Notes: generated from the letters alone by a model not told the origin. Shown: positions 681 to 35,273, counted from the stretch's first letter. The stretch is DNA of 35,658 bases from an uncultured Bacteroidales bacterium (GCA_964611705.1 CAZTAW010000003.1:1-35658), one strand, 5' to 3'. Made by a program: numbers and translations.

Positions 681-1685
681 TTAGATTTTTGTTTGAAAAT
701 AATACCAGATAGAACTCAAAAAATTCCTTGATTTCTCCATATCACAAACCAGCGCTTTCCTGCTATATGATTGCAGCTTAAATTCATCATCTGTTTTCTT
801 TTCCAATCCTTCCAACTGATCCATGCAAACATAGCATCGTGTAATGATGGGCGTTAATTGATGGAGGTATTGTTTGATGTGTTTACTTTTATAATTGGTT
901 TTGTAGCACAAGTTAAAGGCTTCCTTACGCTGTTCATCGAATAGCTTTCTCAGGCCATTGATTTTACCGGCAGTTGATGCAAGCGTATTGATTTTTTGCT
1001 CACGGTCGTTGTAAATGTCAAAAATATCATTACCCAACTGGAACAATGCCCCGATATTAAACAAAGCCTCATATTCGCCTTCCTGCAGAGGATGTTCAAA
1101 AACACTTCTGAATAATAAAACACTGTACCCACCCTTTTCGAATGTAATACGCTTAATTTCTTTAAAAGAAATATCAGGGTTTTTTTGTTTTTTGCTTTCT
1201 ACCTGGCTTTCAAAAATCTTATCTGTCATCTCCCAGTGAAATTCCTTATTTACCGTATTTTTTAGAACTTCTTTGCGGTAGTTTACAAATATTTTATCAA
1301 TAAGAGTTTTGGCTTCGAATTGATCAGGATTTCTCGAAATTTTGATCACATCTTCCTGGCTCATACTGCGTTTGTCGAAAAAATCGTCATATATACCTGT
1401 AATCATTCCCAAACATGTAATAGCCCATCTTTCTTTTTCTGTCATCTTTTTTCCGCGTAAGGTGCAAAACGATTCCCCCAAAACAGAAGTGGTATAATTG
1501 CCGTAATATGTTGTAATTTTTCGAATATCTTCTGCATCAACAGTCCCGTCATTTTCTTGCTCAATTTCCCTGAACAATGGAATCAGCTTTTTATTTAGGT
1601 ATTTTTTCTGCCTTTTCAAATTCCTGAGCACAACATATGCCACAGCAGGAAATCGAAGAAAGTTGCTTATCAGGAATTTGTTCAT
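681..1685 (-). CDS. Class 1 isoprenoid synthase superfamily protein (terpene/prenyl synthase-like), function unknown
   Basis: 334 aa, probably helical; Asp-rich motif YDDFFD, a KGG motif and second motif QLGNDIFD at appropriate spacing. Confidence 0.65.
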   Translation of the reverse strand: MNKFLISNFLRFPAVAYVVLRNLKRQKKYLNKKLIPLFREIEQENDGTVDAEDIRKITTYYGNYTTSVLGESFCTLRGKKMTEKERWAITCLGMITGIYDDFFDKRSMSQEDVIKISRNPDQFEAKTLIDKIFVNYRKEVLKNTVNKEFHWEMTDKIFESQVESKKQKNPDISFKEIKRITFEKGGYSVLLFRSVFEHPLQEGEYEALFNIGALFQLGNDIFDIYNDREQKINTLASTAGKINGLRKLFDEQRKEAFNLCYKTNYKSKHIKQYLHQLTPIITRCYVCMDQLEGLEKKTDDEFKLQSYSRKALVCDMEKSRNFLSSIWYYFQTKI

Positions 1686-1809: not shown

Positions 1810-4179
1810 TTAAAAAGATAAGCTTATGCCACCCATCACATTAATACCGGCCTGGGGAAAATAGCCATCCATTTCGTAATACGCACCCTTATAGTAATAG
1901 CGATAAACCCATGCATAAGTTTCATATTCTATGTCAAACAGGTTATTAATCATCAGGTTCAGGCCGATCTCCCTGATAAAGTTGGTTTTAAAAGTGTAAT
2001 TGATTACCAAATCATTGATAAAATACGGATTCAGGCTTCGTGATTCGCTTGACGTATTATCAATATATTGCCTGCTCACATATTTGGAATTCAGTGAGAT
2101 TTCCAATCCTATTGCTGACTGGTAGTTTATCATGCTTCCCGCAACGATCTCAGGAGAAAAAGACAAATCAGTGGCACCGAGATGATTCTTCTTCTGCTCA
2201 TAGGGCGGGCTCCAGTTGTCAATAAATTCCGTGAAATCCCTGACTTTGTTCCTGCTAAAAGTCGCATTTACATCCCATTTCAGGAATTTAAAGATCTGAA
2301 CACCTGCCATAAGCTCAATGCCTGCGCGATAGCTGTCCGGGACATTTGTCATGATAGCTGCCCCAACATCATTGATCTCACCAGTCAGAACCAGTTGATC
2401 TTTATAATCCATAAAATACAAATTGGCTTCCAGTCCATAACGGGGATGGGTATATTTGTAACCTACTTCATAATCATATAGCCTTTCTGCTTTGGGTTGA
2501 TAACCTTCATCCGCATCACGGTAATTGCTCCGGTTGGGTTCGCGGTTGGCTACGGCAAAAGAAAAATATAAGCTCTGGTTTTTTGTCAGGTCAAACAATA
2601 ACCCGGCTTTGGGATTAAAAAAGTTAAAGGTATGATTCTGTGATATATCCCGGAGATCATCATGAATTCCATCAATTTTGTAATCTACATTACGATATTG
2701 CAGATCACCGTATATATTGATCTTATCCGTGATCTGATAATTCATCTTTCCGAAAATATTAAAATCGGTTTTAATACCGGTGTTGTCATACCATTGATAA
2801 TCCTTTTCCATGTTTGATGCATAAGCTGCCCAGATAACCTCACCAAAATGATCACCGTCAAAGCGGTTCCATGATCCTCCGATAATCAGGTTGGTTTTGT
2901 TTTTGTTATATTTGAGTGAATACGTTAACCCATAGTAATCATTTTTCAACCATTTTTGCCTGATCATATCCGTTGCAGTGATAAGGGTATCTCCGATCTC
3001 AACATCAGGCAATTGATAATCCACATAGGCCTGAGCTTCTTTATATTGCTCATAATATCCTTCTCCATGAATCAAAAACAATGATGTATTCAGATGCAGG
3101 TTTTTGTTGAACTGATAGGTGTAATGCAATTGGTAGTGATCCTGTTGATAGTTATCGGTTTCGTTTTCGTATGTATAAGGATTGTAAGTACGGTTGGTTT
3201 CAAGCGAATCTTTGGGAACTCCGCCCCATGCCTGGTAGGTTCTTTCCTTGCCCGAAAAAATAACTGCCTTCAACATACTTTTTTCACCATAATAGCCACC
3301 TGAAAAATAAAATGATTTCAAATCGGCAAAAGCCCTGTCAATATATCCATCCGAACTAATTTTGGAAAGTCTGCCATCAAAGCTCCATTTGCCCTTAATC
3401 AAACCGGTTCCAAAGGCAACATTATTTTTAAATGTGTTGAACGAACCGGCGTTGCTGTTAACAATCCCATACGGATCAGGCTGAAGCGTTGTTGTTTGTA
3501 TGTTAATGCTTCCTCCGAAAGCTGCCGCTCCGTTTGTAGATGTACCCACACCACGCTGGATTTGAATATTGTCAATTGAGGATGCTATATCAGGCATATC
3601 CACCCAGAAAACACCTTGAGATTCCGGGTCATTAAGCGGAATACCGTTAATGGTAACATTCAGTCTTGTGATATCCGAGCCTCTGATCCTGATCCCTGTA
3701 TAGCCTATGCCCGTGCCCGCATCAGAAGTAATTACCGTTGAAGGACTTTGATCAATCAGATAGGGCAAATCCTGACCCATGTTGATCTTTTCAATTTCTT
3801 CAAAATCAACATTCTCATAGGTTGTGGGTGATTTTTTATCTGCACGTATCGCTGTGATGATCACCTCATCGCCAATATAAGCTTTGGTTTCAAGGGTAAA
3901 GATAATGGTTGTGTCTTTGCTCAGGTGAATATTTTTCACCACCGTTTCATGCCCGATAAAAGACACCTTCATGGAATATTTCCCCTCCGGGATTCGTGTC
4001 AGTGAATATTCGCCATTATCATCGCTAACAGTTGACTTGTATGTTTTCTGCAGAATGATGTGTGCACCGGTAAGTGGCCGGTCTTCTTCATCCGTTACTT
4101 TTCCCCGTATACTAAACTGGGGAAATCCCATCATCGGGATCAAATTGGAAATTAAAAAACAGATAACAAATTTTTTCAT
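1810..4179 (-). CDS. TonB-dependent outer-membrane receptor, probably thiamine uptake
   Basis: Signal peptide, N-terminal carboxypeptidase-regulatory-like domain, plug motifs (IRIRG, NGIPLND, IQIQRG...GGSINI), beta-barrel ending in Phe; directly downstream of a TPP riboswitch. Confidence 0.9.
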   Translation of the reverse strand: MKKFVICFLISNLIPMMGFPQFSIRGKVTDEEDRPLTGAHIILQKTYKSTVSDDNGEYSLTRIPEGKYSMKVSFIGHETVVKNIHLSKDTTIIFTLETKAYIGDEVIITAIRADKKSPTTYENVDFEEIEKINMGQDLPYLIDQSPSTVITSDAGTGIGYTGIRIRGSDITRLNVTINGIPLNDPESQGVFWVDMPDIASSIDNIQIQRGVGTSTNGAAAFGGSINIQTTTLQPDPYGIVNSNAGSFNTFKNNVAFGTGLIKGKWSFDGRLSKISSDGYIDRAFADLKSFYFSGGYYGEKSMLKAVIFSGKERTYQAWGGVPKDSLETNRTYNPYTYENETDNYQQDHYQLHYTYQFNKNLHLNTSLFLIHGEGYYEQYKEAQAYVDYQLPDVEIGDTLITATDMIRQKWLKNDYYGLTYSLKYNKNKTNLIIGGSWNRFDGDHFGEVIWAAYASNMEKDYQWYDNTGIKTDFNIFGKMNYQITDKINIYGDLQYRNVDYKIDGIHDDLRDISQNHTFNFFNPKAGLLFDLTKNQSLYFSFAVANREPNRSNYRDADEGYQPKAERLYDYEVGYKYTHPRYGLEANLYFMDYKDQLVLTGEINDVGAAIMTNVPDSYRAGIELMAGVQIFKFLKWDVNATFSRNKVRDFTEFIDNWSPPYEQKKNHLGATDLSFSPEIVAGSMINYQSAIGLEISLNSKYVSRQYIDNTSSESRSLNPYFINDLVINYTFKTNFIREIGLNLMINNLFDIEYETYAWVYRYYYKGAYYEMDGYFPQAGINVMGGISLSF

Positions 4180-9815: not shown

Positions 9816-10652
9816 ATGCCTTCAAAAATCAGATTACAAAGACGTGGTAAAAAAGGAAGACCTTATTACCACATTATTATTGCGGATGGTCGTGCACCAC
9901 GAGACGGAAGATTTATTGAAAAGATTGGCATTTACAATCCAATCACAAGTCCCGCGGAAATTGATCTGGATTTCGACAAAGCCATTGAATGGCTCACCAA
10001 GGGTGCGCAGCCTACCGAAACTGTCAGATCAATTTTATCATTCAAAGGTGTTCTTTTCAAAAATCATCTTTTAAAAGGAGTGAAAAAAGGAGCGCTGACA
10101 GAGGAGCAGGCGGAAGCAAAATTCCAGGCCTGGCTCAAAGAAAAAGAGGAAAAGATTCAAAAACGAATTAAAGAAAGTGAAGAAAAACAGAGAGGCGATC
10201 GCAAGAAAAGACTTGAAGAAGAGATCAAGGTAAATCAGGCAAGAGCAGAAGAGATAGAGAAGAAAAGAGCTGAGGAAATTGAAAAACAAGTGAAAGAAGC
10301 TCAGGAAAAAGAAGAAGAGGAAACAAAGGAAACTGAAGCAAAAGAAAAGGCAGAAAAAGCCAAACCTGAATCAGCACCTGAGACTAAAGAAAAAGAGCAG
10401 CCTAAAGAAGAAAAGAGAGAAGAACACAAGGAAGAGAAGAAAGAGGAACTTAAAGAAGAGAAAAAGGAAGAACCTAAAACTGAAAAGAAAGAAGAGCAGC
10501 CTAAAGAAGAAAAGAAAGAAGAACCTAAGGCTGAGAAGAAAGACGAACCTAAAGAAGAGAAAAAGGAAGAACCTAAAACTGAAAAGAAAGAAGAGCAGCC
10601 GAAAGAAGAAAAGAAAGAAGCTGCTTCGGGTGACAAAACGGATAAAAAGTAA
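9816..10652 (+). CDS. rpsP: 30S ribosomal protein S16 with a long Lys/Glu-rich C-terminal extension
   Basis: KIRLQR.G.K..PYY.I..AD.RAPRDG.FIE.IG.YNP, WL..GAQPT.TV; upstream of rimM. Confidence 0.97.
   Translation: MPSKIRLQRRGKKGRPYYHIIIADGRAPRDGRFIEKIGIYNPITSPAEIDLDFDKAIEWLTKGAQPTETVRSILSFKGVLFKNHLLKGVKKGALTEEQAEAKFQAWLKEKEEKIQKRIKESEEKQRGDRKKRLEEEIKVNQARAEEIEKKRAEEIEKQVKEAQEKEEEETKETEAKEKAEKAKPESAPETKEKEQPKEEKREEHKEEKKEELKEEKKEEPKTEKKEEQPKEEKKEEPKAEKKDEPKEEKKEEPKTEKKEEQPKEEKKEAASGDKTDKK
10451..10620 (+). repeat. 71-bp direct repeat (99-bp period) within the rpsP tail
   Basis: 10451-10521 and 10550-10620 are identical except at one base (10502 T vs 10601 G); embedded in ~24-bp units encoding PKEEKKEE. 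Confidence 0.9.
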
Positions 10653-15936: not shown

Positions 15937-16812
15937 ATGGGATTCTTTTATTTTCTCAGGAGAAAAAAATTTTACATCCATGTCGGGATTGCAATTGTGC
16001 TAACATTCTTTTTGCTATGGCTAAGCTTTCAGGTTTTGAAACTTTATACACGACATGGGGACACCATTTCCATTCAGGATTTCAACGGAATGACGCTTGA
16101 GGAAATCAAAGCCGAAGGCCTGGATAAACATTTCAACTTTGTTGTGGAAGATTCAGTGTATGATCCTACCAAGGACAAAGGAATTATTATTCAGCAAAAT
16201 CCTTTACCATTCAGTAAAGTAAAAAAAGGCAGGAAAGTTTATCTTACCATTGTTGCTAAAAACCCGGAAAAAATCAGCATGCCTGATCTGACTGACCTCA
16301 GCCTGCGTCAGGCGCTTGTTATTCTTGAATCCTCAGGATTAAGGGTGGATTCACTGGAATATATAACCCATTTTGCAGAAAATGCCATACTGGGCCAGAT
16401 GTTTAAAAATAAAGAAATTGAACCCGGAACACTGATAGAAAAAGGATCAAAGATCAAGCTTGTGATCGGGAGCGGGTATTCACAAAAAAAACTGCCCATT
16501 CCTTTCCTGATAGGCAAAAAACAAAAAGCCGCGATCAAGTTGATCCACAGGGCTTCGTTCAATATCGGTAATGAATACTTTCTTGACGGAAGGGATACCG
16601 CAACAGCAAGGATATATCAGCAGGAACCTTCATGGGACAGCGACACCATCCTTCAACATGGCAACTACATAGATGTCTGGTACCGCTCGGAAGAATTATT
16701 CGATTTTGATGAATATATCCTGAGCCTGTTCCCGGATACAACAAGGGTGGATACTATTTTAACAGATTCTATCAGAAATGAGATCATTGATAAAATCAAT
16801 AATCAGGAATGA
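15937..16812 (+). CDS. PASTA domain-containing membrane-anchored protein
   Basis: N-terminal TM, YT.HG motif and three PASTA-like repeats (Q.P....VK.G..V.L); -7 element TATATTTG at 15835-15842. Confidence 0.88.
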   Translation: MGFFYFLRRKKFYIHVGIAIVLTFFLLWLSFQVLKLYTRHGDTISIQDFNGMTLEEIKAEGLDKHFNFVVEDSVYDPTKDKGIIIQQNPLPFSKVKKGRKVYLTIVAKNPEKISMPDLTDLSLRQALVILESSGLRVDSLEYITHFAENAILGQMFKNKEIEPGTLIEKGSKIKLVIGSGYSQKKLPIPFLIGKKQKAAIKLIHRASFNIGNEYFLDGRDTATARIYQQEPSWDSDTILQHGNYIDVWYRSEELFDFDEYILSLFPDTTRVDTILTDSIRNEIIDKINNQE

Positions 16813-18935
16813 AAAAAACAATAATCACAATACTCACTTTATTTGTTTCAGGCTGGGGATTTTCACAGGAGATCGTGACAGGGTTGACTGAAAATCCGGT
16901 CATCAAAAAAGCTTATCAGCAACGGCTGGAACAAAAAGAACACGAAAGATCAAGCGTAACCAAAGAATGGATACCTGTAACGCTGCCTTTCTTTGATGAT
17001 TTCAGCGATTATGTTGGCTACCCGGATACAGCTATATGGCTTGATGACGAGGCATACATCAACAGGGATTTTCCTTTCAGGCAAGCGAATCTGGGTTCCG
17101 CAACACTTGATGTGATTGATGCACAGGGAAACATATACTCCAACGCAAGCATCTATCCTTTTATCGCCGACAGGCTGACATCAAGACCCATACGCCTCGA
17201 CTCCGTTTTTTATCCAATACCTGAAGCCATTCGTCCTTCCGATTCGGTATATTTCAGCTTCTTTTACCAGCCCCAGGGAAGAGGGGAACCCTTGAATCCC
17301 AGCGATTCACTCATACTTGAATTCGGGCATTACGGGGAAGACTCCGTATTTACTTCGGTTGATAGTATCACCGTTCCGCTGAGTGCATACATAACACCCA
17401 ATGACACTGTATTTCCCGGCGATACACTTTTTTCTCCCTGCGACGATACCTGGGGGATGGCAATTTTCGACACTTTGTATTACGGGGATGAAGTCACCCT
17501 GCCCTGCGACTCGGTTTTCTTCCCAAACATAAAATGGACAGAGGTCTGGGGCACACCAGGTATGCCGCTTGATACTTTTTATAAAAATGACAGTGTGTAC
17601 CGCAAGCAGGTTATGATACCCATCACAGATAGTGCAAAATACCTGCGTGAAGATTTCTTTTTCCGTTTTTTCAACTATGGCAGTCTACCTTCCATCCCAA
17701 GCTGGAAAAGCAATTGCGATCAATGGAATATTGATTATGTTTACCTGAATATCGGACGCTCAATGGGTGATACGGTATACAGAACCATTGGCTTTGTTGA
17801 GCGCTCACCCTCCATGCTCAAAAATTTTGAAAGGATGCCCTACGATCAGTACCTGCATAATCCTACCAATGTATTGCGTGATACATTCAAGTTATATATT
17901 ACAAATCTTGATAACACTACTTTCAATACCATATATAAATATCGTCTGACCAACGATGAAGGCACATTTGAAAAATCATACGACGGAGGAAGCTGCAACC
18001 TGCTTCCGTTTTATGAAGAACAATACCAGAATTGCACCACATGTCCGCAACATGCCTGTCCACCCTGGAAGTTTCTTTTCCCTTTGAATTATAGCTCGGA
18101 ATTTGCAAAATTCAGGATTGATCACATTTTGCTTGGCGACATAACTTCTGCTGATACTTTGCATGATACGCTGACCTTTTACCAGGAGTTTTACAATTAT
18201 TTTGCATATGATGACGGCACGCCCGAAGCGGGATATGGTCTGGTACCTGCCGGTGCCCAACTGGCTTACCAGTTTAAGCTTAGCCGGCCGGATACCCTTC
18301 GGGGAATCAAGATGTTCTTTAACAAGGTGGTCAATAATGCCAATGATATGTATTTCGACCTTGCCGTTTGGGCAGATAATAATGGAATACCCGGCGAACT
18401 CATCTATATACAGGAAAATGAAAAACCCAGGTTTACCAATGATCTGTATAAAATGCATACTTACGAGCTGGACTCAGGCGTTCTGGTGAACAATATATTT
18501 TATATCGGCTGGATACAATCCGAAAACAAAAACCTGAATGTAGGTTTCGATAAATACAATGATGCACGGGAATACACTTTCTACAACTCAACAGGCAACT
18601 GGAACCAATCACTGATGAAAGGAGCCATTATGATGCGCCCGTTGCTTGGTAAGGAAATCATTATCGGAATGCATGAAAATAAAGTCCGGACACAATCCGT
18701 AAGCTTGTATCCCAATCCGGTTCATACCGGAAGCATTAATATTGACCTTGAGGGAATAAAGGTTCCCGAAAAAGCTTATATCCAAATATACAATATTTTC
18801 GGACAATTGGTATACGAATCGAAATACAGTGAAACACATAATATAAGCCATCTAAAAGATGGTGTATATATTTTCAGACTGATACAGCCGGAGAACAGGA
18901 AAGTTTATTCGGCCAAATTCATCGTTTCCGGATAA
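16809..18935 (+). CDS. T9SS type A sorting domain-containing protein, function unknown
   Basis: Signal peptide; LPFFDDFS, AYDDG..E..YG; C-terminal YPNP...IYN..GQ...L..G.Y....KF. Confidence 0.85.
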   Translation: MKKTIITILTLFVSGWGFSQEIVTGLTENPVIKKAYQQRLEQKEHERSSVTKEWIPVTLPFFDDFSDYVGYPDTAIWLDDEAYINRDFPFRQANLGSATLDVIDAQGNIYSNASIYPFIADRLTSRPIRLDSVFYPIPEAIRPSDSVYFSFFYQPQGRGEPLNPSDSLILEFGHYGEDSVFTSVDSITVPLSAYITPNDTVFPGDTLFSPCDDTWGMAIFDTLYYGDEVTLPCDSVFFPNIKWTEVWGTPGMPLDTFYKNDSVYRKQVMIPITDSAKYLREDFFFRFFNYGSLPSIPSWKSNCDQWNIDYVYLNIGRSMGDTVYRTIGFVERSPSMLKNFERMPYDQYLHNPTNVLRDTFKLYITNLDNTTFNTIYKYRLTNDEGTFEKSYDGGSCNLLPFYEEQYQNCTTCPQHACPPWKFLFPLNYSSEFAKFRIDHILLGDITSADTLHDTLTFYQEFYNYFAYDDGTPEAGYGLVPAGAQLAYQFKLSRPDTLRGIKMFFNKVVNNANDMYFDLAVWADNNGIPGELIYIQENEKPRFTNDLYKMHTYELDSGVLVNNIFYIGWIQSENKNLNVGFDKYNDAREYTFYNSTGNWNQSLMKGAIMMRPLLGKEIIIGMHENKVRTQSVSLYPNPVHTGSINIDLEGIKVPEKAYIQIYNIFGQLVYESKYSETHNISHLKDGVYIFRLIQPENRKVYSAKFIVSG

Positions 18936-19984: not shown

Positions 19985-20099
19985 ACTATCATTAAAAAAA
20001 ATTCAAAATTCAGTTTTCAAATCACAAACACTAAAACAATGTCCGCCCTCTGGCAGATAAATCACAGTTTATAATAAATAAATGACCGAACCGAAAGCA

Positions 20100-21977
20100 C
20101 TACTCCTGATTCACCACCTTCATCATTTTGTGAACGGAAACGTCATTATTTTGAACAATTTCAAGAAAATACATACCTTGCCGGAGGTAAGAAATATTAA
20201 ATTTGAGACCTTCACCCGTGATATTATAATGTCCTTCTCCAACCAGGCCTCCCTGAAAATTAAAAATCCTTACTGCAATTTTTCCTGTTTCCGTATTCCC
20301 GAAAAACAACTCAACTTCATTGGAAACCGGATTTGGTCCGATCTTAGGCCGTACCCAGATCAAACCCGGTTTATCCAGTGTATCTGTTTTTTGGTCATTG
20401 GAAACAATTAGTCTGACACGGTACCTGCCAACACCATTGTACTTCACAACAGGATTTTGTTCCAGGGAATTTGAAGGCAATCCGCCATCAAAAACCCACT
20501 CCCATGTATCAGGCCCTCCTCTTGAAAGATCAGTAAAATCAACACTTTCACCCACAGCAACAGTATCGGAACTGGTCTTGAACAATGCAACCAGCACATC
20601 CGTATTAATTCCTATTCCGTCAAGAGATGTAACTCCGGTGTTTTCAGGATCAAGCCAGGGACGAAGCTGAAGCGAATCATAGCTTCCGTTTGATTCCCAT
20701 GAATAAGAAAACTTTCCATAATAATCCGGGCCGGTTAAATTCTGACAGGAAGCAGCGCCGCCTGTCAGTGCACCTATTATCAGCCTGTCATGATTAAAAA
20801 TGGGCGAACCGGATGAACCGCCTTCAGTAACCCCATGATTCGTTTCAGTTTCAGCCCATACTACTTTCCAGTATTTACCTTCAGGATCATAAGTTGTACC
20901 CTCATACTTTGTTGAAACCAATGGACTGGTAAAAGTTGATATTTTTTTTATATCCCCCTGTGGATGATGAATACCCACACCTTCCGGAGAAGCATTCACG
21001 CTTCGCGACCAACCATTGAAATATGGATTGTAACCTTCGGGTACATTTTCATTCAGCAACAACAACTTAAAATCGGATCCCTGCCCTCCGTTGTTTTTAC
21101 TTTTGGCAACAAGCTGCGACCCGACAATGCTTTGATACTGGGGCTCTATGAGCGGATCAGGGCAGGTAGAAGCCTGGTAATTGAAAATAAAGACCCATTG
21201 ATTGTATTCATTTAAAGTTGTAGTTTCTCCGCAATGGTTTGCCGTATAAAAATAGGGTGTATTATCCAGATTTGTATTATTAACAAGGCTTCCGGTGCAT
21301 AAATAAGTTCCTCCGCCTTGCTTTAACAGGATTTTAGCGATGCCGTTTTTTTCATGCCGCCAGTTATTACCTTCCGGGCAATTTACATTTACCTCACAGG
21401 GACCGGAATCCCCAAACCCTCTTTCATTAATGCTGTAAAAATATGCTACTTCGTTGATGAGAATTTCCGGCAATACATTTGTTTGCTCCGTAAATACATA
21501 CTCCAGTATAATTTTATCTCCGGGAACAGGAATTGTAGCAAAGGATCTTCCTTTTTTGTTTGTTTGGGAATTAAACGAACCAATATAGCTGCTTCTTTTG
21601 GCATTATAAATAAATAGCTGCCCTCCATCCGGTATCCTGAATTGAGAATAATAAAAACCCAATGCTTTTGCACCCGGAACTGATATTGAAAGTCTCAGCA
21701 GCTTAGTTCCCTTATTCGTAAACAGTGTTGTTGCTGTATTGGCAAGATCAATATCGGATGGTATGCTAACAGCCACCTGCAAAGGTTGAAAACCGGATTT
21801 TTGTATTTTTTCTCTTTCCGGAATATCTGGTTCGCTGAATGTTATTGTTTTGATGTTATCGAATGAATTTACTTTTTTGAATCCGGGCGGCACACCACCG
21901 TGATTTATTTGCGCATTTGCAGAAAATATACCGGCTAATAAGCTTGCTACGAAAATTGCTGTTTTTCTAATCATCAT
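20100..21977 (-). CDS. T9SS-secreted trypsin-like serine protease (lysyl endopeptidase-like) with one PKD domain
   Basis: Signal peptide from MMIRK (start 21977 or 21974, not 22040); propeptide; TANHC, SDF and TEGGSSGSP triad; IHHP.GDIKKIS; PKD (F.D.S......W.W.F.GG); T9SS CTD. Confidence 0.88.
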   Translation of the reverse strand: MMIRKTAIFVASLLAGIFSANAQINHGGVPPGFKKVNSFDNIKTITFSEPDIPEREKIQKSGFQPLQVAVSIPSDIDLANTATTLFTNKGTKLLRLSISVPGAKALGFYYSQFRIPDGGQLFIYNAKRSSYIGSFNSQTNKKGRSFATIPVPGDKIILEYVFTEQTNVLPEILINEVAYFYSINERGFGDSGPCEVNVNCPEGNNWRHEKNGIAKILLKQGGGTYLCTGSLVNNTNLDNTPYFYTANHCGETTTLNEYNQWVFIFNYQASTCPDPLIEPQYQSIVGSQLVAKSKNNGGQGSDFKLLLLNENVPEGYNPYFNGWSRSVNASPEGVGIHHPQGDIKKISTFTSPLVSTKYEGTTYDPEGKYWKVVWAETETNHGVTEGGSSGSPIFNHDRLIIGALTGGAASCQNLTGPDYYGKFSYSWESNGSYDSLQLRPWLDPENTGVTSLDGIGINTDVLVALFKTSSDTVAVGESVDFTDLSRGGPDTWEWVFDGGLPSNSLEQNPVVKYNGVGRYRVRLIVSNDQKTDTLDKPGLIWVRPKIGPNPVSNEVELFFGNTETGKIAVRIFNFQGGLVGEGHYNITGEGLKFNISYLRQGMYFLEIVQNNDVSVHKMMKVVNQE

Positions 21978-22023
21978 TAATAATCTTTCAGGAATAAAAG
22001 TATAAAAAAGTTGAGGAATAAAT

Positions 22024-22058
22024 AAAAAACCCGGCAGCAAATATCAAACCACCGGGTT
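22024..22058 (-). terminator. Intrinsic terminator between the two protease genes
   Basis: Minus strand AACCCGGTGGT-loop-GCTGCCGGGTT followed by TTTT. Confidence 0.7.
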
Positions 22059-22082
22059 AACACATTTTATTTTCCAAGTTAT

Positions 22083-24281
22083 TTATCTTACCAAAGATAT
22101 CCTTTCAACAACCTCAATATCATTGATATTGATTGAAATTAAATAAACACCTTCAGCCTGTTTGCTCAGGTCAATCAAACATTTGCCTTCATTATCAAGG
22201 TTGTTGTAATGTTGTATTTGTTCTCCGATGGCATTGTAAACAGTAATCTCTGCATTTTCAACTTCAATATTCGCTACTTCCAACGCAACTTTACCTTTCG
22301 AAGGATTGGGATAAAGTTTTATGTTTTGAGCAAGCTTGTTTTCGTCCAATCCTACCCAAACTACGCTGATATATGCTTCTTTATAGATTGAATCCATTCC
22401 TCCGGGGGCATAAGCTTTAAGGGTCACATCAAAAACACCTTTTTCAGGATAAACAATATCTTGCGGGTCCTGATCATTTGAGTTTTCGGGTTCACCTCCC
22501 TCAAAATACCATTCCCACCAGAAAGGATCGTTCGTTGTCAGGTCAGTGAAATCAATATCATTTCCGGGTTCGATCATGGTAGCATTGGCTTCAAAATCAG
22601 CCTCCGGGGCTTCGCCTTCATACCTTACATGGATATAATCCTCCATGATCAATTCATCATCGCCATCGGGATTACTTACCTGCAGGGTTACATCAAAATA
22701 TCCCGTATCAATATACATCACTTGCGGGTTTTGGATATGAGATGTATCAATATTAGCGCCTTCAAAAATCCATGTCCAGGATTGTGGTTTATTAGTTGTT
22801 GAATCAGTGAACTGAACTGCTTCTCCCGAAACCACCTCTGTTTCATCTGCGCCAAAATTAGCAACCGGAGGAATCGCCTCCAGTGGAATCCCATCGCAAA
22901 CCGTATCACCGGTGTTATTTGGATCGAGCCAGTCTTTCAACCTGAATTCCGCTGAATTACCGCATTTATCCCAGGAATAATAAATTTTCCCGTAAAAAGC
23001 CGGTCTTGGGGATTCGCATGAATTACCCTGGTAGGTACCTGTCAGGTCTCCCAGGATTCTTTTGTCCTGGTTAAAAACCGGTGAACCTGAAGAACCACCC
23101 TGAATGACAGATGTTCCATTTGCGGTTTCAATCCACCATAATCTCCAGTGTGTCTGTGCGCTGCTTCCACCAGGCCATGAGGAAGAAACCATATGGTCAT
23201 AGGTGGAGATTTTCTTGATATCACCATTCGGATGATGTATATTAACGCCGCTGTCGCCGGGTACATCCCTTCTGTCCCAGCCATTATAGAAAGGATTATA
23301 CGTTGAAGGCAACTGTGAATTTAAAAGAACAAGGAAAAAGTCAGACCCGTTTCCGGCAAATGTATGATCCCAGGCTTTTAGTGAAGCGCCTGTCATAGTT
23401 TGGTTTTGCGGCCCTGATGATCCGCTGCATGAACCCGACTGGTAATTAAAATAAAACACCCATTGATTCAGGTCGGATGTAGAAGCGCCTTCTCCACAAT
23501 GGGCCGCAGTAAGAAAATAGGGCTGTCTGTCCCAGTTTGTGTTATTGATCAATGATCCGGAGCAATATCCGTATAAGCTGCCAATTTTAAGTAATATTTT
23601 GGCAATTCCGTTTTCTTCTTCACGCCAGTTATCTCCTTCTTCGCATGCAATATTGATCATACACCACCAGGATGGATCGCGGCTGTCTCTTTCGGCAAAC
23701 TCAAATTTAACAAACCTATACATATATGCTAGCTCCGAAATATTTAGCTTGGGAATATTTTCAACAGAAGCCGGTTGATAATATTCCAGTGTTACCTTAT
23801 CACCTTGTATCAACTCTGTTGCAAACAATCCGGAAGAATGATTATTGGCACTGGTAAAAGCGCCAATTACTTGTTTCTGATCTGCATTGTATAAATACAG
23901 CTCCCCTCCTTCAGGAAGTTGAAAATCGTCATAATACAAACCAAGGCCAACTGCGCCGGGGCATTCCAGGCTGAGACGCCAGATTTTTCCGCCATCGGCC
24001 AGTTCTGTCCAGGTTCCCGAGTTATAAATTCCCTTGTTAACAATGATCGAAACACCTGCACGTGGAACTGCCGGATTATCCATTGCTGCAATGGCATCTT
24101 CCTGCCGGATTTTTTCCATGTCAGGAGCCTGCAGCATTATGGTTTGATAATCATCATTCAATGCTTTACCCAGCATACTGGGCGGGGTTCCCCCCTGGCT
24201 GATCTGTGAATAAGATTGGGCGCTGAATCCGAGAAAAGCAAACGCAATCAATAAGTAAACGTAAATTCTGTAATTTGTCAT
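22083..24281 (-). CDS. T9SS-secreted trypsin-like serine protease (lysyl endopeptidase-like) with two PKD domains
   Basis: Signal peptide from MTNYR (start 24281); TAAHC, SDF and QGGSSGSP triad; two PKD repeats; YPNP-type CTD; paralog of the downstream gene. Confidence 0.88.
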   Translation of the reverse strand: MTNYRIYVYLLIAFAFLGFSAQSYSQISQGGTPPSMLGKALNDDYQTIMLQAPDMEKIRQEDAIAAMDNPAVPRAGVSIIVNKGIYNSGTWTELADGGKIWRLSLECPGAVGLGLYYDDFQLPEGGELYLYNADQKQVIGAFTSANNHSSGLFATELIQGDKVTLEYYQPASVENIPKLNISELAYMYRFVKFEFAERDSRDPSWWCMINIACEEGDNWREEENGIAKILLKIGSLYGYCSGSLINNTNWDRQPYFLTAAHCGEGASTSDLNQWVFYFNYQSGSCSGSSGPQNQTMTGASLKAWDHTFAGNGSDFFLVLLNSQLPSTYNPFYNGWDRRDVPGDSGVNIHHPNGDIKKISTYDHMVSSSWPGGSSAQTHWRLWWIETANGTSVIQGGSSGSPVFNQDKRILGDLTGTYQGNSCESPRPAFYGKIYYSWDKCGNSAEFRLKDWLDPNNTGDTVCDGIPLEAIPPVANFGADETEVVSGEAVQFTDSTTNKPQSWTWIFEGANIDTSHIQNPQVMYIDTGYFDVTLQVSNPDGDDELIMEDYIHVRYEGEAPEADFEANATMIEPGNDIDFTDLTTNDPFWWEWYFEGGEPENSNDQDPQDIVYPEKGVFDVTLKAYAPGGMDSIYKEAYISVVWVGLDENKLAQNIKLYPNPSKGKVALEVANIEVENAEITVYNAIGEQIQHYNNLDNEGKCLIDLSKQAEGVYLISININDIEVVERISLVR

Positions 24282-24305
24282 GATAATGGGTTTTGTTTTA
24301 AGCCA

Positions 24306-24332
24306 CAAATATAATGATATTATGTACATTTG
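24306..24332. promoter_or_regulatory. Back-to-back divergent -7 elements (TATATTTG on -, TACATTTG on +)
   Basis: CAAATATA at 24306-24313 and TACATTTG at 24325-24332 in the 83-bp gap between the protease and MFS start codons. Confidence 0.65.
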
Positions 24333-24364
24333 GGGCGAATTCTGAAATCCCAATAAAATTTATC

Positions 24365-26422
24365 ATGGAGCAAATCAAAAGAACATTAAGAGATTCGGCC
24401 AAAGCCCGCTGGACTATGATGTTCATCATTAGCTTTTTAATGGCTGCCAATTATTATTTTTATGACGCGTTATCCCCCTTAAAAGAAATCCTTACCGAAC
24501 ACCTGAATTTTTCATCGGGTGATTACGGGATTGTAACCGGTTTTTATGCCTTCCCAAACACCTTTCTTTTAATGGCCATTATTGGCGGGATCATCCTCGA
24601 TAAGCTCGGCATACGACCAACTGGATTTATGTTTGCGGTTTTAATGCTGATCGGCGCTGCATTGACAGCCTACGGCGCTTCTAACTATTACAGTTCCGGC
24701 GGTATAGGTTATGAATTCATGGGTTCATTCTGGAAATCATACTCTCCTGAACTTAAAATGATGTCCCTGGGTATGCTCATCTTTGGTCTGGGAGCTGAAA
24801 CCAGTATTGTTGTTGCCAGTAAAGTACTCGTTAAATGGTTCAAGGGTTATGAGATTGCGCTTGCTTTTGCTCTCAACCTTGGAATAGCAAGAATAGGAAC
24901 AGCCCTGGCTTTCAATCTCTCACCCCGTTTAATATTCGGAGATAACTGGCAATTCCCGATCTGGTTTGCCGTAATGATATTACTGATCGGTTTTCTCGGC
25001 TTTCTTATTTATATAATGTATGATGTTAAACTTGACCGGCAGATGAAAAGCAATATCAAGCTTATGGATAAAGAAGATGAATTCCATATTGCAGATATTG
25101 GCAGACTTCTCACAAATAAATCTTTCCTTTTTATTACTGCACTTTGTGTTACTTTTTATGCAGGTGTATTTCCTTTTCTCAAATTTGCGCCTGATCTTTT
25201 TTATAATAAATACGGATTTTCTTTGCAGGCCAGCGGAGATATTGCCTCCCTCCTGCCATACGGAACAGTGTTGTTTACACCGATTTTCGGATGGGTAGTT
25301 GATAAATGGGGGAAAAGTGCTACCCTAATGATCTATGGTTCCCTGTTATTGCTAATTGTCCATTTGCTATTCGGGTTAACACGATTTGATGTATATCTGT
25401 TGATGGTATTGCTGGGTATCGCCGTGTCACTTGTACCGGCAGCCATGTGGCCGTCGGTTGCCAAGATCGTTCCTACTTCACGGATCGGAAGCGCTTACGG
25501 TACGATGTTCTCTCTTCAAAATTTAGGGCTGTTTGCTGTGCCAATACTTGCCGGCGTGATCCTGGATTCAACCAATAAATATTCTGACACCTACTTAAAA
25601 CCCACACAGGTAAAAGAAGTGTTTGCAGAAAATTATGAACTGCAATCATCCTATTATAATAATGATAAGGAACCTATCACGGATAAAGACCTGCGGGCAA
25701 CAGTATACATCCTTACAATCCCTGACAAAATTGAGTGGCAGGATAAAGAAGAAAATATAATTGCCGACACCATTCAGAAATACAGTAAAACTGTATGGTC
25801 GGAATACGACAGCACCCAAACCAACAACAAGGGCAAGTTTGATATTTTCTTCGGAAAGGGAAATCTGCTTAAACTTAATATGCAATACATGAACATCCCG
25901 TCAGGCAAATACCTGATGAATATTTCCACGGAAGAAGAGGAAAACGAACCGGCAGTCACGATTTATAAGGGGCTACTTATTTTCGACAGGGATAGCCTGG
26001 ACAGGATACCATTGGAACATAATCTTTCTGATGAATTATTAAATAAAATTGATGAAACAGGGTTTGACATCAACATTGTTGTAAGAGATACTGCAAACAA
26101 TGCAAACATAACAGTTCTTAAAGAATCACATGAGGTGAAAATTAAGAACAATAAAATAGATTTCAAGCTTGGGAAAGGAAATATTGCTTTTGCCAACATC
26201 AATTATCTTAACTCCAGCAAACCCAACGAGGTTTATTTCATAAAAGTAAGAACACCCCTGGATTATACATACACTTGCCTGTTGTTCGCTTTATTTGGCA
26301 TCATCGGCTTCTTCTTTGCCCTGCTGTTAAAGCATAACGACAGAACATCAGGCTACGGACTTGAATTACCATCCAATGCCACGGAGGAGGAAATACAGGA
26401 AAAACTTAAAAAGAAGGAGTAA
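24365..26422 (+). CDS. MFS transporter (MFSD1-like) with a large soluble insert before the last TM helix
   Basis: YFYD, GGIILDKLGIR, FGLGAE, KWFKG.E, FYAGVFPF, MWPSV, AYG.MFS.QNLG; ~225-aa hydrophilic insert; start at MEQIK. Confidence 0.88.
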   Translation: MEQIKRTLRDSAKARWTMMFIISFLMAANYYFYDALSPLKEILTEHLNFSSGDYGIVTGFYAFPNTFLLMAIIGGIILDKLGIRPTGFMFAVLMLIGAALTAYGASNYYSSGGIGYEFMGSFWKSYSPELKMMSLGMLIFGLGAETSIVVASKVLVKWFKGYEIALAFALNLGIARIGTALAFNLSPRLIFGDNWQFPIWFAVMILLIGFLGFLIYIMYDVKLDRQMKSNIKLMDKEDEFHIADIGRLLTNKSFLFITALCVTFYAGVFPFLKFAPDLFYNKYGFSLQASGDIASLLPYGTVLFTPIFGWVVDKWGKSATLMIYGSLLLLIVHLLFGLTRFDVYLLMVLLGIAVSLVPAAMWPSVAKIVPTSRIGSAYGTMFSLQNLGLFAVPILAGVILDSTNKYSDTYLKPTQVKEVFAENYELQSSYYNNDKEPITDKDLRATVYILTIPDKIEWQDKEENIIADTIQKYSKTVWSEYDSTQTNNKGKFDIFFGKGNLLKLNMQYMNIPSGKYLMNISTEEEENEPAVTIYKGLLIFDRDSLDRIPLEHNLSDELLNKIDETGFDINIVVRDTANNANITVLKESHEVKIKNNKIDFKLGKGNIAFANINYLNSSKPNEVYFIKVRTPLDYTYTCLLFALFGIIGFFFALLLKHNDRTSGYGLELPSNATEEEIQEKLKKKE

Positions 26423-26423
26423 A

Positions 26424-28430
26424 ATGGAACAGTTCAGAAAAGCACTGAAGGACTCAGCAAGCATCAGGTGGAGTATACTATTCCTGATCGCATTTGTGCA
26501 AGCGGCCAACTATTATTTTTACGATGCTCTTTCACCTTTAAAGAGATTACTCGAAGATAATTTCAACTTTACATCTTCCGATTACGGATTTTTTGTAGCT
26601 GCTTATTCCATTCCCAACACATTTCTGTTGATGGCAATTTTGGGAGGAATGATACTCGACAAACTTGGCATCAGAAGAACAGGATTTTTGTTTGTAGGTT
26701 TGATGGCTGCCGGAGGTTTGCTTACTGCATACGGTGCAAGCGAGTATTTCTCGAATGGCGGTTTTCTTTACGGGTTTTTCAATTCTTTTCTAACGGATTA
26801 TACACCTGAATTGAAAATGATGTTGCTGGGTCGCTTCCTCTTCGGTTTGGGAGCTGAAACCAGCATTGTGGTCGAAAGCAAGGTCATTGTGAAATGGTTT
26901 AAGGGAAAGGAACTGGCGCTGGCATTCGGAATGAAGATCGGGCTTGCAAGGGCAGGTTCGGCTTTGGCGCTCTTTTACTCAGCCGAAATTGCTGAAGCGG
27001 CCTCCCACTGGACCATAGCTATATGGTTTGCTGCTATTTTACTACTGATCGCATTCCTGGCTTTTCTGGTATATACCATCTTTGATGTGAGACTTGATAA
27101 GCAGATCATTCAGAAATCCGCCGTCAAGAGCGACGATCGTTTCAGCTTTGCCGACCTTGGAAAACTACTGACCAACAAATCCTTTATTTACGTCACACTG
27201 CTTTGTGTTACATTTTATTCAGCGGTATTCCCATTCCAGGCATTTTCTCCTGATTTTCTATTAAACAAATTCGGGATGGGATTATCACAAAGTGGTAAAA
27301 TTGCTTCAATTCTTTATTGGGTTACCATGTTTGCCACACCTTTGTTCGGTTTGGTGGTTGATAAATACGGGCGAAGCGCTACATTAATGATATTCGGGTC
27401 CATTTTACTTGCTGTCATCCATCTTACTTTTGCTTTAACCTATTTTAATCCGGTAGTGCCGTTACTTTTCTTAGGTATCGCGATAGCGCTTGTACCGGCT
27501 GCCATGTGGCCATCGGTTGCAAAAATTGTTGCAGAAAAAAGAATTGGAACTGCCTATGGAGCCATGTTTTCAATTCAAAATCTTGGGTTATTTGCATTTC
27601 CAATACTGGCAGGTTTTATTCTCGATATTACCAACAAAAACGCTGAGATATATCTTACACCTGAACAAACAACAACAATAAAAAATGCAAAGGTGTTTGA
27701 GGTTGAGTATCTCGATAATCAAGACCAGCCAGTTGCAAACAAAAAACTTTTGTCATCGGTAACACTTTATTGGATGCCGGATACATTAAAACTCAAAGAA
27801 GAGGAAAATGAACTAAAAAATCAGATTGACAAACATGGTAAAATGATCTGGACCGAATACTTCCAAACACGATCTGACAAAAGCGGAAAATTTTCAGTCA
27901 AACCGGGAAGTGACGGCACTGAAAAAATCAATGTAAAATATTTTAATATTGATCCCAAAAACACACTGATACTTATTTCAGCCAATGATTCGGCCCGAAC
28001 CTCGCTGTATGAATTCACAGACGTACAGCAGGATACGGTAAATGAATATTTGCTTCAAAAAATCAGTCTGCCTGAGGAAGTTGAAAACAAAATCAAACAA
28101 TCAGAAAAAATTAATGTTACTTTAACAGACACCTCAGGAAATGTAATTATTTTGGACGAAAAACATAAAGTGTTCTTTGATGATGAAAGCTTACTGAGTC
28201 TCAGGGTCGGTAAAGGTGAAATAGCCTATGCAAATATTGATTACCTCAACTGGACTGATAATGTTGTGGTAAAGATCAGGACGCCATTAAACTATACATT
28301 CGCCATCTTAATGTTCGCAGCGCTAGGTGTTCTTGGATTTATATTCGCATTATTGCTGAAACGTGAAGATAAAAATTCCGGTTACGGACTTGAGCTTCCA
28401 TCAAACAAGAAAGCCAAAAATTCAGCGTAA
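26424..28430 (+). CDS. MFS transporter (MFSD1-like) paralog with the same type of insert
   Basis: Same motifs as the upstream gene; start MEQFR 1 bp after the upstream stop; both share SGYGLELPSN near the C-terminus. Confidence 0.88.
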   Translation: MEQFRKALKDSASIRWSILFLIAFVQAANYYFYDALSPLKRLLEDNFNFTSSDYGFFVAAYSIPNTFLLMAILGGMILDKLGIRRTGFLFVGLMAAGGLLTAYGASEYFSNGGFLYGFFNSFLTDYTPELKMMLLGRFLFGLGAETSIVVESKVIVKWFKGKELALAFGMKIGLARAGSALALFYSAEIAEAASHWTIAIWFAAILLLIAFLAFLVYTIFDVRLDKQIIQKSAVKSDDRFSFADLGKLLTNKSFIYVTLLCVTFYSAVFPFQAFSPDFLLNKFGMGLSQSGKIASILYWVTMFATPLFGLVVDKYGRSATLMIFGSILLAVIHLTFALTYFNPVVPLLFLGIAIALVPAAMWPSVAKIVAEKRIGTAYGAMFSIQNLGLFAFPILAGFILDITNKNAEIYLTPEQTTTIKNAKVFEVEYLDNQDQPVANKKLLSSVTLYWMPDTLKLKEEENELKNQIDKHGKMIWTEYFQTRSDKSGKFSVKPGSDGTEKINVKYFNIDPKNTLILISANDSARTSLYEFTDVQQDTVNEYLLQKISLPEEVENKIKQSEKINVTLTDTSGNVIILDEKHKVFFDDESLLSLRVGKGEIAYANIDYLNWTDNVVVKIRTPLNYTFAILMFAALGVLGFIFALLLKREDKNSGYGLELPSNKKAKNSA

Positions 28431-28431
28431 T

Positions 28432-29529
28432 ATGAAAAAATCATTGTTTGTACTCGCGATAACTGTTTTTATTTCAGGATGCAACATAAATCAAAAACCT
28501 GATTACAGTGCAGATTCCAATCAACCCAAAAACATCATTTTATTGATCGGGGATGGAATGGGCCTTTCACAGCTTTATGCTGCTTTTAAGACAAAGCAGG
28601 ACAAAACGCAATTAGCCCGATGTAACTTCATTGGATTGATCAATACCAGTTCAATCAGCGATTTGATTACTGATTCGGCAGCTTCCGGAACAGCTATGGC
28701 CTGCGGTGTTAAAACCAACAACCATGCACTTGGTGTTGACCGCGAAGGAAATAAGGTAAAAAGCATCCTTGAAATTGCCGAAGAAAACGGAAAAGCAACA
28801 GGACTGGTTGCAACCGCCGCGATCACACATGCCACACCGGCTTCGTTTGTTGCCCACAATTCCAGCAGACACGATTATGAGGGCATCGCCATGGATTTCA
28901 TCAAAAGTGATATTGATGTATTCATTGGAGGCGGAATAAAACATTTTGCACATCGGGATGACAGTTTAAATCTTTTGGATAGCCTGAGAGCAAAGAACTT
29001 CCGGGTAATTACCGAAATGAATGAAATTGAGACCATCAGCTCAGGAAAATTAGCTGCACTACTTTACGAAAAACATCCGCCAAGCCTTTTGGAAGGAAGG
29101 GAAGGATTTCTTGAAAAATCAAGCCTGAAAGCCATTGAATTGCTAAACCACGATGAAGACGGTTTTTTCCTGATGATAGAATCTTCACAGATTGACTGGG
29201 GCGGACATGATATGAATCAGGAATATGTTGTTAGCGAAACCGTAGAATTTGATGATGTTGTCGGAAAAGTTCTTGATTTTGCCGAAAAAGACGGTGAAAC
29301 ACTGGTTATCATCACATCCGACCATGAATGTGGTGGAATGACCATAATTGGTGAAGATCAGGAAACAGGTGAGATCATAGCACATTTTTCAGCAGACCAT
29401 CACACACCTGTATTTGTACCACTATTCGCTTTTGGCCCCGGAGCTGAAGAATTTTCAGGTATTTACGAAAATACTGAGATCTTTCATAAAATGATGAAAG
29501 CATTTGGTTTCTCCGGGAAACAGGAATAA
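28432..29529 (+). CDS. phoA: Alkaline phosphatase, predicted lipoprotein
   Basis: IGDGMG, TDSAASGTA (catalytic Ser), THATPA, E...ID..GH, TSDHE.GG; lipobox ISGC; ATG at 28432. Confidence 0.92.
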   Translation: MKKSLFVLAITVFISGCNINQKPDYSADSNQPKNIILLIGDGMGLSQLYAAFKTKQDKTQLARCNFIGLINTSSISDLITDSAASGTAMACGVKTNNHALGVDREGNKVKSILEIAEENGKATGLVATAAITHATPASFVAHNSSRHDYEGIAMDFIKSDIDVFIGGGIKHFAHRDDSLNLLDSLRAKNFRVITEMNEIETISSGKLAALLYEKHPPSLLEGREGFLEKSSLKAIELLNHDEDGFFLMIESSQIDWGGHDMNQEYVVSETVEFDDVVGKVLDFAEKDGETLVIITSDHECGGMTIIGEDQETGEIIAHFSADHHTPVFVPLFAFGPGAEEFSGIYENTEIFHKMMKAFGFSGKQE

Positions 29530-35246: not shown

Positions 35247-35273
35247 CAAAAATAATTAAATAAACTAAATTTG
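35247..35273. promoter_or_regulatory. Divergent -7 elements for the M23 operon (TATTTTTG, -) and alaS (TAAATTTG, +)
   Basis: CAAAAATA at 35247-35254 and TAAATTTG at 35266-35273. Confidence 0.6.

Follow-up and report, generated by a model that had tools for sequence, protein, structure and literature searches.

Two secreted serine proteases divergent from two MFSD1-family transporters in an uncultured Bacteroidales bacterium: a candidate locus for protein feeding

The locus and its two secreted proteases

Within a 35,658-nucleotide stretch of DNA from an uncultured Bacteroidales bacterium (GCA_964611705.1, CAZTAW010000003.1:1-35658; hereafter the window), two tandem genes for secreted serine proteases (proteases A and B) diverge from two tandem genes for transporters of the major facilitator superfamily (MFS1 and MFS2), an arrangement that a first-pass annotation of the same DNA had proposed to be a proteolysis and peptide-uptake module. 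The gene map, obtained by listing the open reading frames (ORFs) of the window and translating them (Table 1), reproduced this symmetric layout of two minus-strand protease genes and two plus-strand MFS genes with its exact coordinates, as well as the gap of 83 bp that both pairs share and the spacing of exactly 1 bp between MFS1 and MFS2 and between MFS2 and phoA. From the latter spacing, phoA is probably co-transcribed with MFS2. MFS1 and MFS2 are 51% identical, and proteases A and B 43-45%. The source genome is Bacteroidales-like and uncultured (3.56 Mb in 405 contigs, 93.5% complete), and is present in sequencing runs from metagenomes of microbial mats and sediments, a run search having listed DNA runs and no RNA run.

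Table 1. Features of the protease-transporter locus and of a third paralog in the same genome (window positions unless a contig is named)
Feature	Position	Strand	Description
protease A	20100..21977	-	625 aa; signal peptide, pro-region, catalytic domain, one PKD, type-A CTD
protease B	22083..24281	-	732 aa; two PKD domains, type-A CTD; paralog of protease A
divergent intergenic region	24282..24364		83 bp; back-to-back TAnnTTTG boxes
MFS1	24365..26422	+	MFSD1-family transporter, 685 aa
MFS1 insert	25577..26263	+	about residues 405-633, between TM11 and TM12 (alignment)
MFS2	26424..28430	+	MFSD1-family transporter, 668 aa
MFS2 insert	27636..28289	+	about residues 405-622; two homologous beta-rich repeats, about 100 aa each
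phoA	28432..29529	+	lipoprotein alkaline phosphatase with lipobox; PF00245 E 6.2e-75
terminator-like hairpin 3' of protease A	20042..20057	-	consensus scan only
pepD + third paralog	contig C46, locus L112: 4971-6431 and 6562-8358	both -	apparent operon

CTD, C-terminal domain; TM, transmembrane helix. Terminator-like hairpins were as many in the region as in shuffled sequence.

Both proteases begin with a hydrophobic N-terminus followed by Gln, and continue with a long pro-region, a trypsin-fold domain, PKD domain(s) and a type-A CTD belonging to the T9SS (type IX secretion system). The two CTDs gave E values of 1.7e-12 and 5.6e-11 with PF18962 and scores of 38.1 and 35.1 bits with TIGR04183 (cut-off 23 bits), and the T9SS translocon protein SprA is encoded in the genome (2553 bits). 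With a signal peptide, a sorting domain and a T9SS in the same genome, both proteases are predicted T9SS type-A cargo. As for their catalytic domains, that of protease B matched Achromobacter protease I (API; 1arb) with an E value of 4.9e-42 and that of protease A matched a Lysobacter-type lysyl endopeptidase (4nsy) with 6e-40, so the earlier claim that these are T9SS-tailed kin of the Achromobacter lysyl endopeptidases was substantiated by matches near 1e-40. They are the only two such catalytic domains in the genome, other matches covering PKD or CTD parts alone.

The His/Asp/Ser triad, whose numbering in API we take to be 57/113/194 (the letters agree with the 1arb alignment), was kept in all of the 31 related proteases that we aligned, A and B included. 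The equivalent of API Asp225, the residue at the bottom of the S1 pocket that presumably confers Lys specificity, is Asp in protease A and Ala in protease B. This position divides the 31 proteases into two types, namely type A (480-830 aa), with Asp, and type B (727-818 aa), with Ala, to which protease B and five others belong. Protease A is probably Lys-specific. For protease B, Lys specificity is doubtful because Ala replaces the Asp225 equivalent; its S1 preference has probably changed, and the label of lysyl endopeptidase should probably not be applied to it.

A Pfam scan found neither a SusC-like receptor nor a SusD-like lipoprotein between positions 15937 and 35207, in agreement with the absence of such a pair reported at first reading. 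The nearest TonB-dependent receptor (1810..4179) is the only one in the window; the 334-aa ORF beside it (681..1685) matched no Pfam family at E ≤1e-5, and no SusD partner was recognised there.

Transporters: MFSD1 kinship, binding site, pepD partnership and insert

MFSD1, a mammalian lysosomal dipeptide uniporter, was deorphanised in 2024 (PMC11252000, PMC10990142), and the motifs of MFS1 and MFS2 had been said to resemble it. The resemblance was borne out by profile comparison, since residues 15-402 of MFS2 matched the MFSD1 chain 8r8q_A (8R8Q) with an E value of 1.3e-48, the next chain being MCT2 at 4.6e-4, and the dipeptide-clamping residues are present. With the full-length AlphaFold model of MFS2 (pLDDT 83.5, pTM 0.81) as query, Foldseek ranked the same chain first (E 3.4e-13; next DgoT, 4e-9), the two proteins being 32% identical across some 400 columns. 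Helices of the model span residues 12-403, with the last helix at 625-652, after an insert, and MFS2 is accordingly modelled as a twelve-helix MFS fold; from homology alone, its termini would be cytoplasmic. A hydropathy scan recovered just 9-10 of the 12 helices and was set aside for topology. By sequence, MFS1 and MFS2 are true members of the MFSD1 family, whose bacterial branch comprised at least 7259 matches listed in one search. Most relatives have 450-465 aa, and a minority that includes both window genes has 640-700 aa.

For MFSD1, cryo-electron microscopy gave 13 binding-site residues (Glu150, Arg181, Tyr56, Tyr59, Gln176, Tyr276, Phe280, Tyr365, Trp373, Gln393, Gln396, Asn397 and Leu400), of which Glu150 and Arg181 clamp the dipeptide termini (PMC11252000); the numbering of the 8r8q chain agrees with that of the paper. 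MFS2 keeps 10 of the 13 (Y30, Y33, E145, R176, Y265, F269, W362, Q385, N386 and L389). The Glu/Arg clamp is also present in MFS1, which has Asn at the Gln176 position and Val at the Tyr365 position, and in the third MFSD1-like protein of the genome. The equivalents of Glu150, Arg181, Tyr276, Phe280, Trp373, Gln396 and Asn397 were each found in 131 of 131 bacterial relatives.

One binding-site position separates the tandem copies from each other. In all of 30 tandem arrays (29 loci and the window, three of the loci repeating genomes already counted), the last copy has Lys at the position of Gln176, where the copies upstream of it carry Asn, Glu, Ser or Gln. The window follows the same pattern, with Asn in MFS1 and Lys in MFS2, a split overlooked at first reading. 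Gln176 is described as variable in MFSD1 (PMC11252000). Because the residue lies five positions before the clamp Arg, it is reasonable to infer from these sequences that tandem copies divide their substrates by charge. The two MFSD1 papers disagree on whether selectivity is for cationic dipeptides or for dipeptides in general (PMC11252000, PMC10990142), and the pocket split between paralogs provides a natural experiment on charge selectivity that bears on this dispute.

The third MFSD1-like gene of the source genome (598 aa, contig C46) has, 130 bp 3' of it and on the same strand, a gene for a 486-aa M20 peptidase of the PepD type (TIGR01893, 610 bits with a cut-off of 343.75 bits; 3mru, E 7e-146). 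We compared gene coordinates between separate genome searches at order level (61 genomes, that is, the source and 60 relatives, 51 of them MFS-positive) and at phylum level (150 other genomes, 22 MFS-positive). PepD was encoded beside an MFSD1-like gene in 14/51 MFS-positive genomes of the order, from 10 families, and in 10/22 of the phylum sample, from 6 further families. Five of the phylum-level loci were fetched, and in four of them pepD lies directly upstream of the transporter gene on the same strand, with gaps of 55-172 bp; in the fifth (L119), the largest frame on the pepD side stops some 400 bp short of where the frame of the transporter starts. The five transporters have 420-500 aa and all keep the Glu/Arg clamp. 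A carrier adjoining a cytosolic dipeptidase is what uptake followed by hydrolysis predicts. Because the clamp is invariant in the 131 relatives and pepD-transporter operons recur, we consider it likely that the transporters carry dipeptides.

Two further observations concern PepD. In a genome of the same genus (G002, contig C1, about 1817548-1819004), the PepD sequence by the third paralog is split in two frames and looks to be decaying. In another relative (G057, contig C3, 83970-88014), a PepD gene and the gene for an API-like protease are 1.3 kb apart, and neither adjoins an MFSD1-like gene.

The transporters might alternatively carry a non-peptide substrate, either a product of the alkaline phosphatase or a compound derived from the cell wall (Ddl, PASTA and M23 genes are nearby), their likeness to MFSD1 being one of fold and ancestry. 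Besides the 1-bp spacing in the window, phoA lies directly 3' of the MFS gene in 12-13 of the 78 best related loci, and in six cases the gap is 4-13 bp. In addition, three of the 13 binding-site positions differ in MFS2 (Gln176 to Lys171, Tyr365 to Ile354 and Gln393 to Phe382), NCBIfam returned for the transporters far sub-threshold matches only, to sugar-acid and other MFS families, and no transport assay of a bacterial member was found by title in a literature search whose scope excluded most subscription journals; the available parts of the two MFSD1 papers mention bacteria just in connection with POT transporters (PMC11252000, PMC10990142). However, neither the invariance of the clamp nor the occurrence of pepD-transporter operons in 16 families across the phylum fits this proposal well. 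When loci were grouped at 70% transporter identity, phoA linkage was found in 2/9 groups as against 5/9 for the protease, and no solved organophosphate antiporter matched at E ≤0.01. We therefore regard a non-peptide substrate as improbable, and dipeptides as the likely one.

The direction of transport is a separate matter, given that MFSD1 is a uniporter in which the gradient sets the direction (PMC10990142, PMC11252000), and carriers of this kind could serve mainly for export or equilibration, letting surplus dipeptides out of the cytosol; the lysosomal protein, too, lets dipeptides run down their gradient and does not scavenge them. Nevertheless, the operons shared with a cytosolic dipeptidase gene and the secreted proteases encoded alongside agree with uptake and subsequent hydrolysis, and the genome has periplasmic peptidases that would produce dipeptides, which makes a mainly outward role very improbable.

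MFS1 and MFS2 exceed their usual relatives by about 215 aa, and the extra length is located in the loop between TM11 and TM12, a feature overlooked at first reading. By homology with MFSD1, this loop is predicted to be extracytoplasmic, that is, periplasmic. Homology between the two halves of the MFS2 insert is shown by hhalign (probability 97.7%, E 1.7e-12), and a model of the insert built from 16 sequences is beta-rich (pLDDT 86.5, pTM 0.82), with a net acidic composition (28 K+R vs 36 D+E). The extra length of the third paralog is not homologous to it (hhalign probability 3%). As to known domains, Pfam gave nothing above threshold for the insert (DUF7038 at E 1e-3 to 1e-2 in 5/16 members, and CarboxypepD_reg-like hints), a profile search of the PDB gave a single chance-level row, and the ESM Atlas gave scores ≤0.90 to unnamed clusters and to Big_1/CarboxypepD_reg clusters. 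With the model as query, Foldseek yielded 0 matches in the PDB at E ≤1e-3 (best E 0.014), and VIA-align against 48,161 chains reached a best Z of 6.2 (split-barrel flavin-binding proteins), with none ≥8. A search for remote relatives of the repeat returned 37 matches, the weaker of them in secreted multi-domain proteins, where the repeat stands at the N-terminus or in arrays; Pfam searches on 20 of the 37 found Ig-like families elsewhere in some, which does not define the repeat.

In a tree computed from core columns only (FastTree, with SH-like support only), long forms of the MFS2 type make up one clade (11 rows, support 100), and long and short forms are intermixed in the MFS1 clade, at least six changes of state being needed overall. 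MFS1 orthologs in G002, G003, G004 and G053 share 75-81% core identity and have no insert. Nor does the insert go with the protease, most protease-adjacent carriers being short. We also considered that the MFS1 insert could be a recent copy of the MFS2 insert and rejected this, the two being just 32% identical.

On MFSD1, Tyr416 is within hydrogen-bond distance of Arg292 of its partner GLMP (PMC11252000). In our alignment, Tyr416 would map 3-4 residues past the end of the aligned part of TM11, at the point where the insert of the bacterial proteins starts. No candidate for a GLMP-like partner gene was evident at the locus in a general family scan, in which no GLMP sequence was used as query. 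The insert occupies the TM11-TM12 loop that the beta-sandwich GLMP contacts on MFSD1. By analogy, it may do as part of the carrier what accessory domains do for the peptide carriers of eukaryotes, and could shield the carrier from proteases, as GLMP does, or dock periplasmic peptidases, much as the ectodomain of PepT1/2 binds a protease; this is a speculative idea to which we give little weight. If docking were true, dipeptides would be released at the mouth of the carrier, and if the idea holds, the patchy insert, with its at least six gains or losses, would mark lineages with heavy periplasmic proteolysis. What the model does indicate is a confidently folded domain, at a site known to matter for the function of the mammalian protein.

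Recurrence of the protease-transporter neighbourhood

Recurrence of the protease-MFS linkage in other genomes was a test set beforehand. For the 78 loci, taken from contigs of one genome per species, every ORF was called and entered into a clustering that used no prior labels. The API-like T9SS protease was the largest neighbour cluster (21 genes in 19/78 loci; 15 of the 48 loci having at least 2.5 kb on both flanks), so the linkage is not unique to the source genome. Protease-positive loci fall into 8/30 groups at 80% transporter identity and, as given above, 5/9 at 70%. In 16 loci the protease gene is upstream and divergent, at 140-1015 bp; it is co-directional and 3' of the transporter gene in L084 and L098, at 9-13 bp, and in L090, at about 1.7 kb.

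This recurrence could reflect an inherited neighbourhood only, in which the carriers are dipeptide importers that work with PepD and the adjacency of the protease is conserved gene order, with no shared regulation or function. In many loci the pair is held in a larger block, Ddl-PASTA-T9SS cargo-RluD-protease-MFS-phoA-hldD-MerR-M23-AlaS, whose other genes track the transporter as well, RluD in 11 loci (6/30 groups) and hldD in 15 loci (6/30), compared with 19 loci (8/30) for the protease. Unrelated genes stand between the pairs in G003, G004, G046 and G050, and the partner of the transporter across the phylum is pepD, not the protease. Yet the protease is the top neighbour and, in 17 of the 19 loci that have it, the immediate one. 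The pair also survives in a different neighbourhood, because eight positive loci, mostly labelled Lentimicrobiaceae, have no RluD, hldD or phoA in their flanks (three of the eight having short ones). The co-directional arrangement of L084 and L098 is operon-like. Lastly, in G053 (L023/L107) a non-homologous protease holds the same place, namely a 1166-aa T9SS protease of the gingipain type (C25) divergent from the MFS1 ortholog (L023, 8045-11545, plus strand); an API-like protease was not found in that genome with the window query. On balance, we hold a merely inherited neighbourhood to be rather unlikely.

Several findings nonetheless weigh against a module of proteolysis and uptake. The protease link is confined to the order, where both families occur together in 42/61 genomes vs 41 expected (51 with MFS, 49 with the protease); that is, there is no excess of co-occurrence. 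In the phylum sample, none of the 22 transporter-positive genomes is among the 15 protease-positive ones (overlap 0/150). Because the presence of the two families is uncorrelated and does not overlap at phylum level, the carrier does not need the protease, and the link is lineage-specific. Even within the genus, adjacency was found in only one of five other genomes (G002, about 0.8 kb), and the protease B ortholog there (L014) has three in-frame stops in a near-complete metagenome-assembled genome and looks to be decaying. In G003 and G004 the pairs are parted by unrelated genes over 7.8 kb and 8.8 kb (including T9SS cargo, YadA-like, PCMT, pyridoxal phosphate-dependent decarboxylase, SDR and TrmO genes), in G005 the proteases are 43 kb off, and in G001 they are on another contig. 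Where adjacency exists, it is often inside the block with the unrelated RluD, hldD, MerR, M23 and AlaS genes, which are nearly as widely kept. The locus itself has no outer-membrane peptide importer or dipeptidyl peptidase, the proteases acting outside the outer membrane, and it is not obvious where the closely coupled phoA would fit in a peptide route. The three changed pocket positions of MFS2 and the retention of the Lys-specifying Asp by protease A only are to be counted on the same side.

The promoter region is a further case. Two TAnnTTTG boxes, the motif that we take to be the Bacteroidota -7 promoter element, lie back to back in the gap at 24306-24313 (minus strand) and 24325-24332 (plus strand), 11 bp apart as first described, and the same geometry recurs, as had also been pointed out, between M23 and alaS (35247-35254, minus, and 35266-35273, plus; 11 bp apart). 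The motif is weak evidence, with 62 matches in the window vs 43 ± 7 in shuffles. In relatives the boxes are about 70-300 bp apart, and the 11-bp geometry is thus peculiar to the source genome, which likewise counts against the module; a compact shared promoter is not conserved, and this part of the first-pass annotation did not hold.

Regarding the spacers of related loci, the TAnnTTTG box nearest the MFS gene in L053, L054, L056 and L057 lies about 180-190 nt 5' of the start codon, implying a long leader. The protease-MFS spacer of L035 (4760-5773, 1014 bp) contains small open frames and resembles a small insertion.

Other features of the window were noted in passing. M23 and AlaS remain neighbours in seven related loci. 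A 708-aa T9SS cargo (16809-18935, plus strand), with no domain recognised besides the sorting tail, is kept beside the PASTA gene and RluD in G002 and G054 (37-50% identity). The ORF for ribosomal protein S16 (9816-10652, plus strand) has 278 aa, of which the S16 model covers residues 9-67 only, and its long tail is encoded where both AT skew (0.42) and GC skew (0.16) are strong. At 40-663 (minus strand) lies a gene for a 207-aa protein that Pfam places in the family of chloramphenicol acetyltransferases (CAT; E 3.5e-29).

Proposed route and comparison with known systems

Collectively, the proposal of a proteolysis-uptake module stands in part, in that both homologies, the recurrence of the linkage and the dipeptide-binding residues favour it, and the shared promoter, tight linkage, co-occurrence and the Lys specificity of protease B do not. 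From the sequence data, we consider it somewhat more probable than the contrary that the locus loosely couples two steps of a protein-feeding route. The protease link is circumstantial, and a functional tie of the transporters to the proteases is close to an even call. Substrate, transport direction, energetics, co-regulation and this functional tie are what we infer in the route that follows.

In the proposed route, proteases A and B would leave the cell through the T9SS and cut environmental protein to oligopeptides at or outside the cell surface. These would cross the outer membrane and be trimmed by periplasmic dipeptidyl peptidases (DPPs); the genome has three S46-type and two to three DPP4-type genes, and one POT gene. 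MFS1 and MFS2, in the inner membrane, would then take up dipeptides, holding their termini between Glu and Arg (E145 and R176 in MFS2), and the tandem copies, with Asn in MFS1 and Lys in MFS2, would probably share out substrates by charge. Each carrier is predicted to bear its folded two-repeat, beta-rich domain of about 215 aa in the periplasmic TM11-TM12 loop. Imported dipeptides would be split by PepD in the cytosol, and, if the carriers are uniporters like MFSD1, this hydrolysis would provide the drive, together with the membrane potential in the case of cationic dipeptides. If this is true, the bacterial MFSD1 branch would consist of dipeptide carriers working with PepD and would represent a second dipeptide route of Bacteroidota beside POT, and in one order the carrier would have repeatedly stayed beside secreted endopeptidases.

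Compared with API (1ARB, 4NSY), the catalytic domains of the window proteases are homologous (E 1e-38 to 1e-42) and keep the triad, and differ in the Ala that replaces Asp225 in protease B and in five type-B genes. PepK of Porphyromonas gingivalis is a T9SS-secreted, Lys-specific serine endopeptidase, which the window proteases resemble in their T9SS CTD, the likeness being drawn from its published description (PMC4674972). Unlike API and PepK, the window proteases have PKD domains between the catalytic domain and the CTD.

In P. gingivalis, the available part of one account describes a route from gingipains through RagAB and periplasmic DPPs to a POT dipeptide transporter (PMC8048996). The route proposed here would be similar in its T9SS endopeptidases outside the cell, its DPP genes (S46, DPP4) and its inner-membrane dipeptide carrier of the MFS, and would differ in that the window carrier belongs to the MFSD1 family and not to POT (of which the genome also has one gene), and that the endopeptidases are serine proteases instead of cysteine proteases. 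In the window the protease genes adjoin those of the carriers, an arrangement not reported for P. gingivalis in the same part of that account (PMC8048996).

The ectodomain of PepT1/PepT2 comprises two immunoglobulin-like folds in tandem and binds trypsin (PMC4597091). As predicted peptide-carrying MFS proteins with a tandem beta-rich pair in an extracytoplasmic loop, the window carriers are similar to these. They differ from them in family (MFSD1 instead of POT), in the loop concerned, which is TM11-12 here and presumably TM9-10 in PepT1/PepT2, and in the insert, which matched neither Ig nor other folds convincingly.

With MFSD1, the window carriers, known from sequence alone, share ancestry, the Glu/Arg clamp and most pocket residues, and three pocket positions differ. 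Unlike MFSD1, they would be inner-membrane proteins of a bacterium whose likely direction is uptake from the periplasm, and they are not known to have a GLMP partner, carrying instead the insert of about 215 aa in the TM11-TM12 loop. In both cases cytosolic hydrolysis of dipeptides would follow transport, which is seen here as pepD operons. The proteases and the carrier family are thus of known kinds, and what is new amounts to variation on these, namely the bacterial pairing of pepD with MFSD1-like genes, the pocket dimorphism of the tandem copies and, especially, the periplasmic two-repeat insert.

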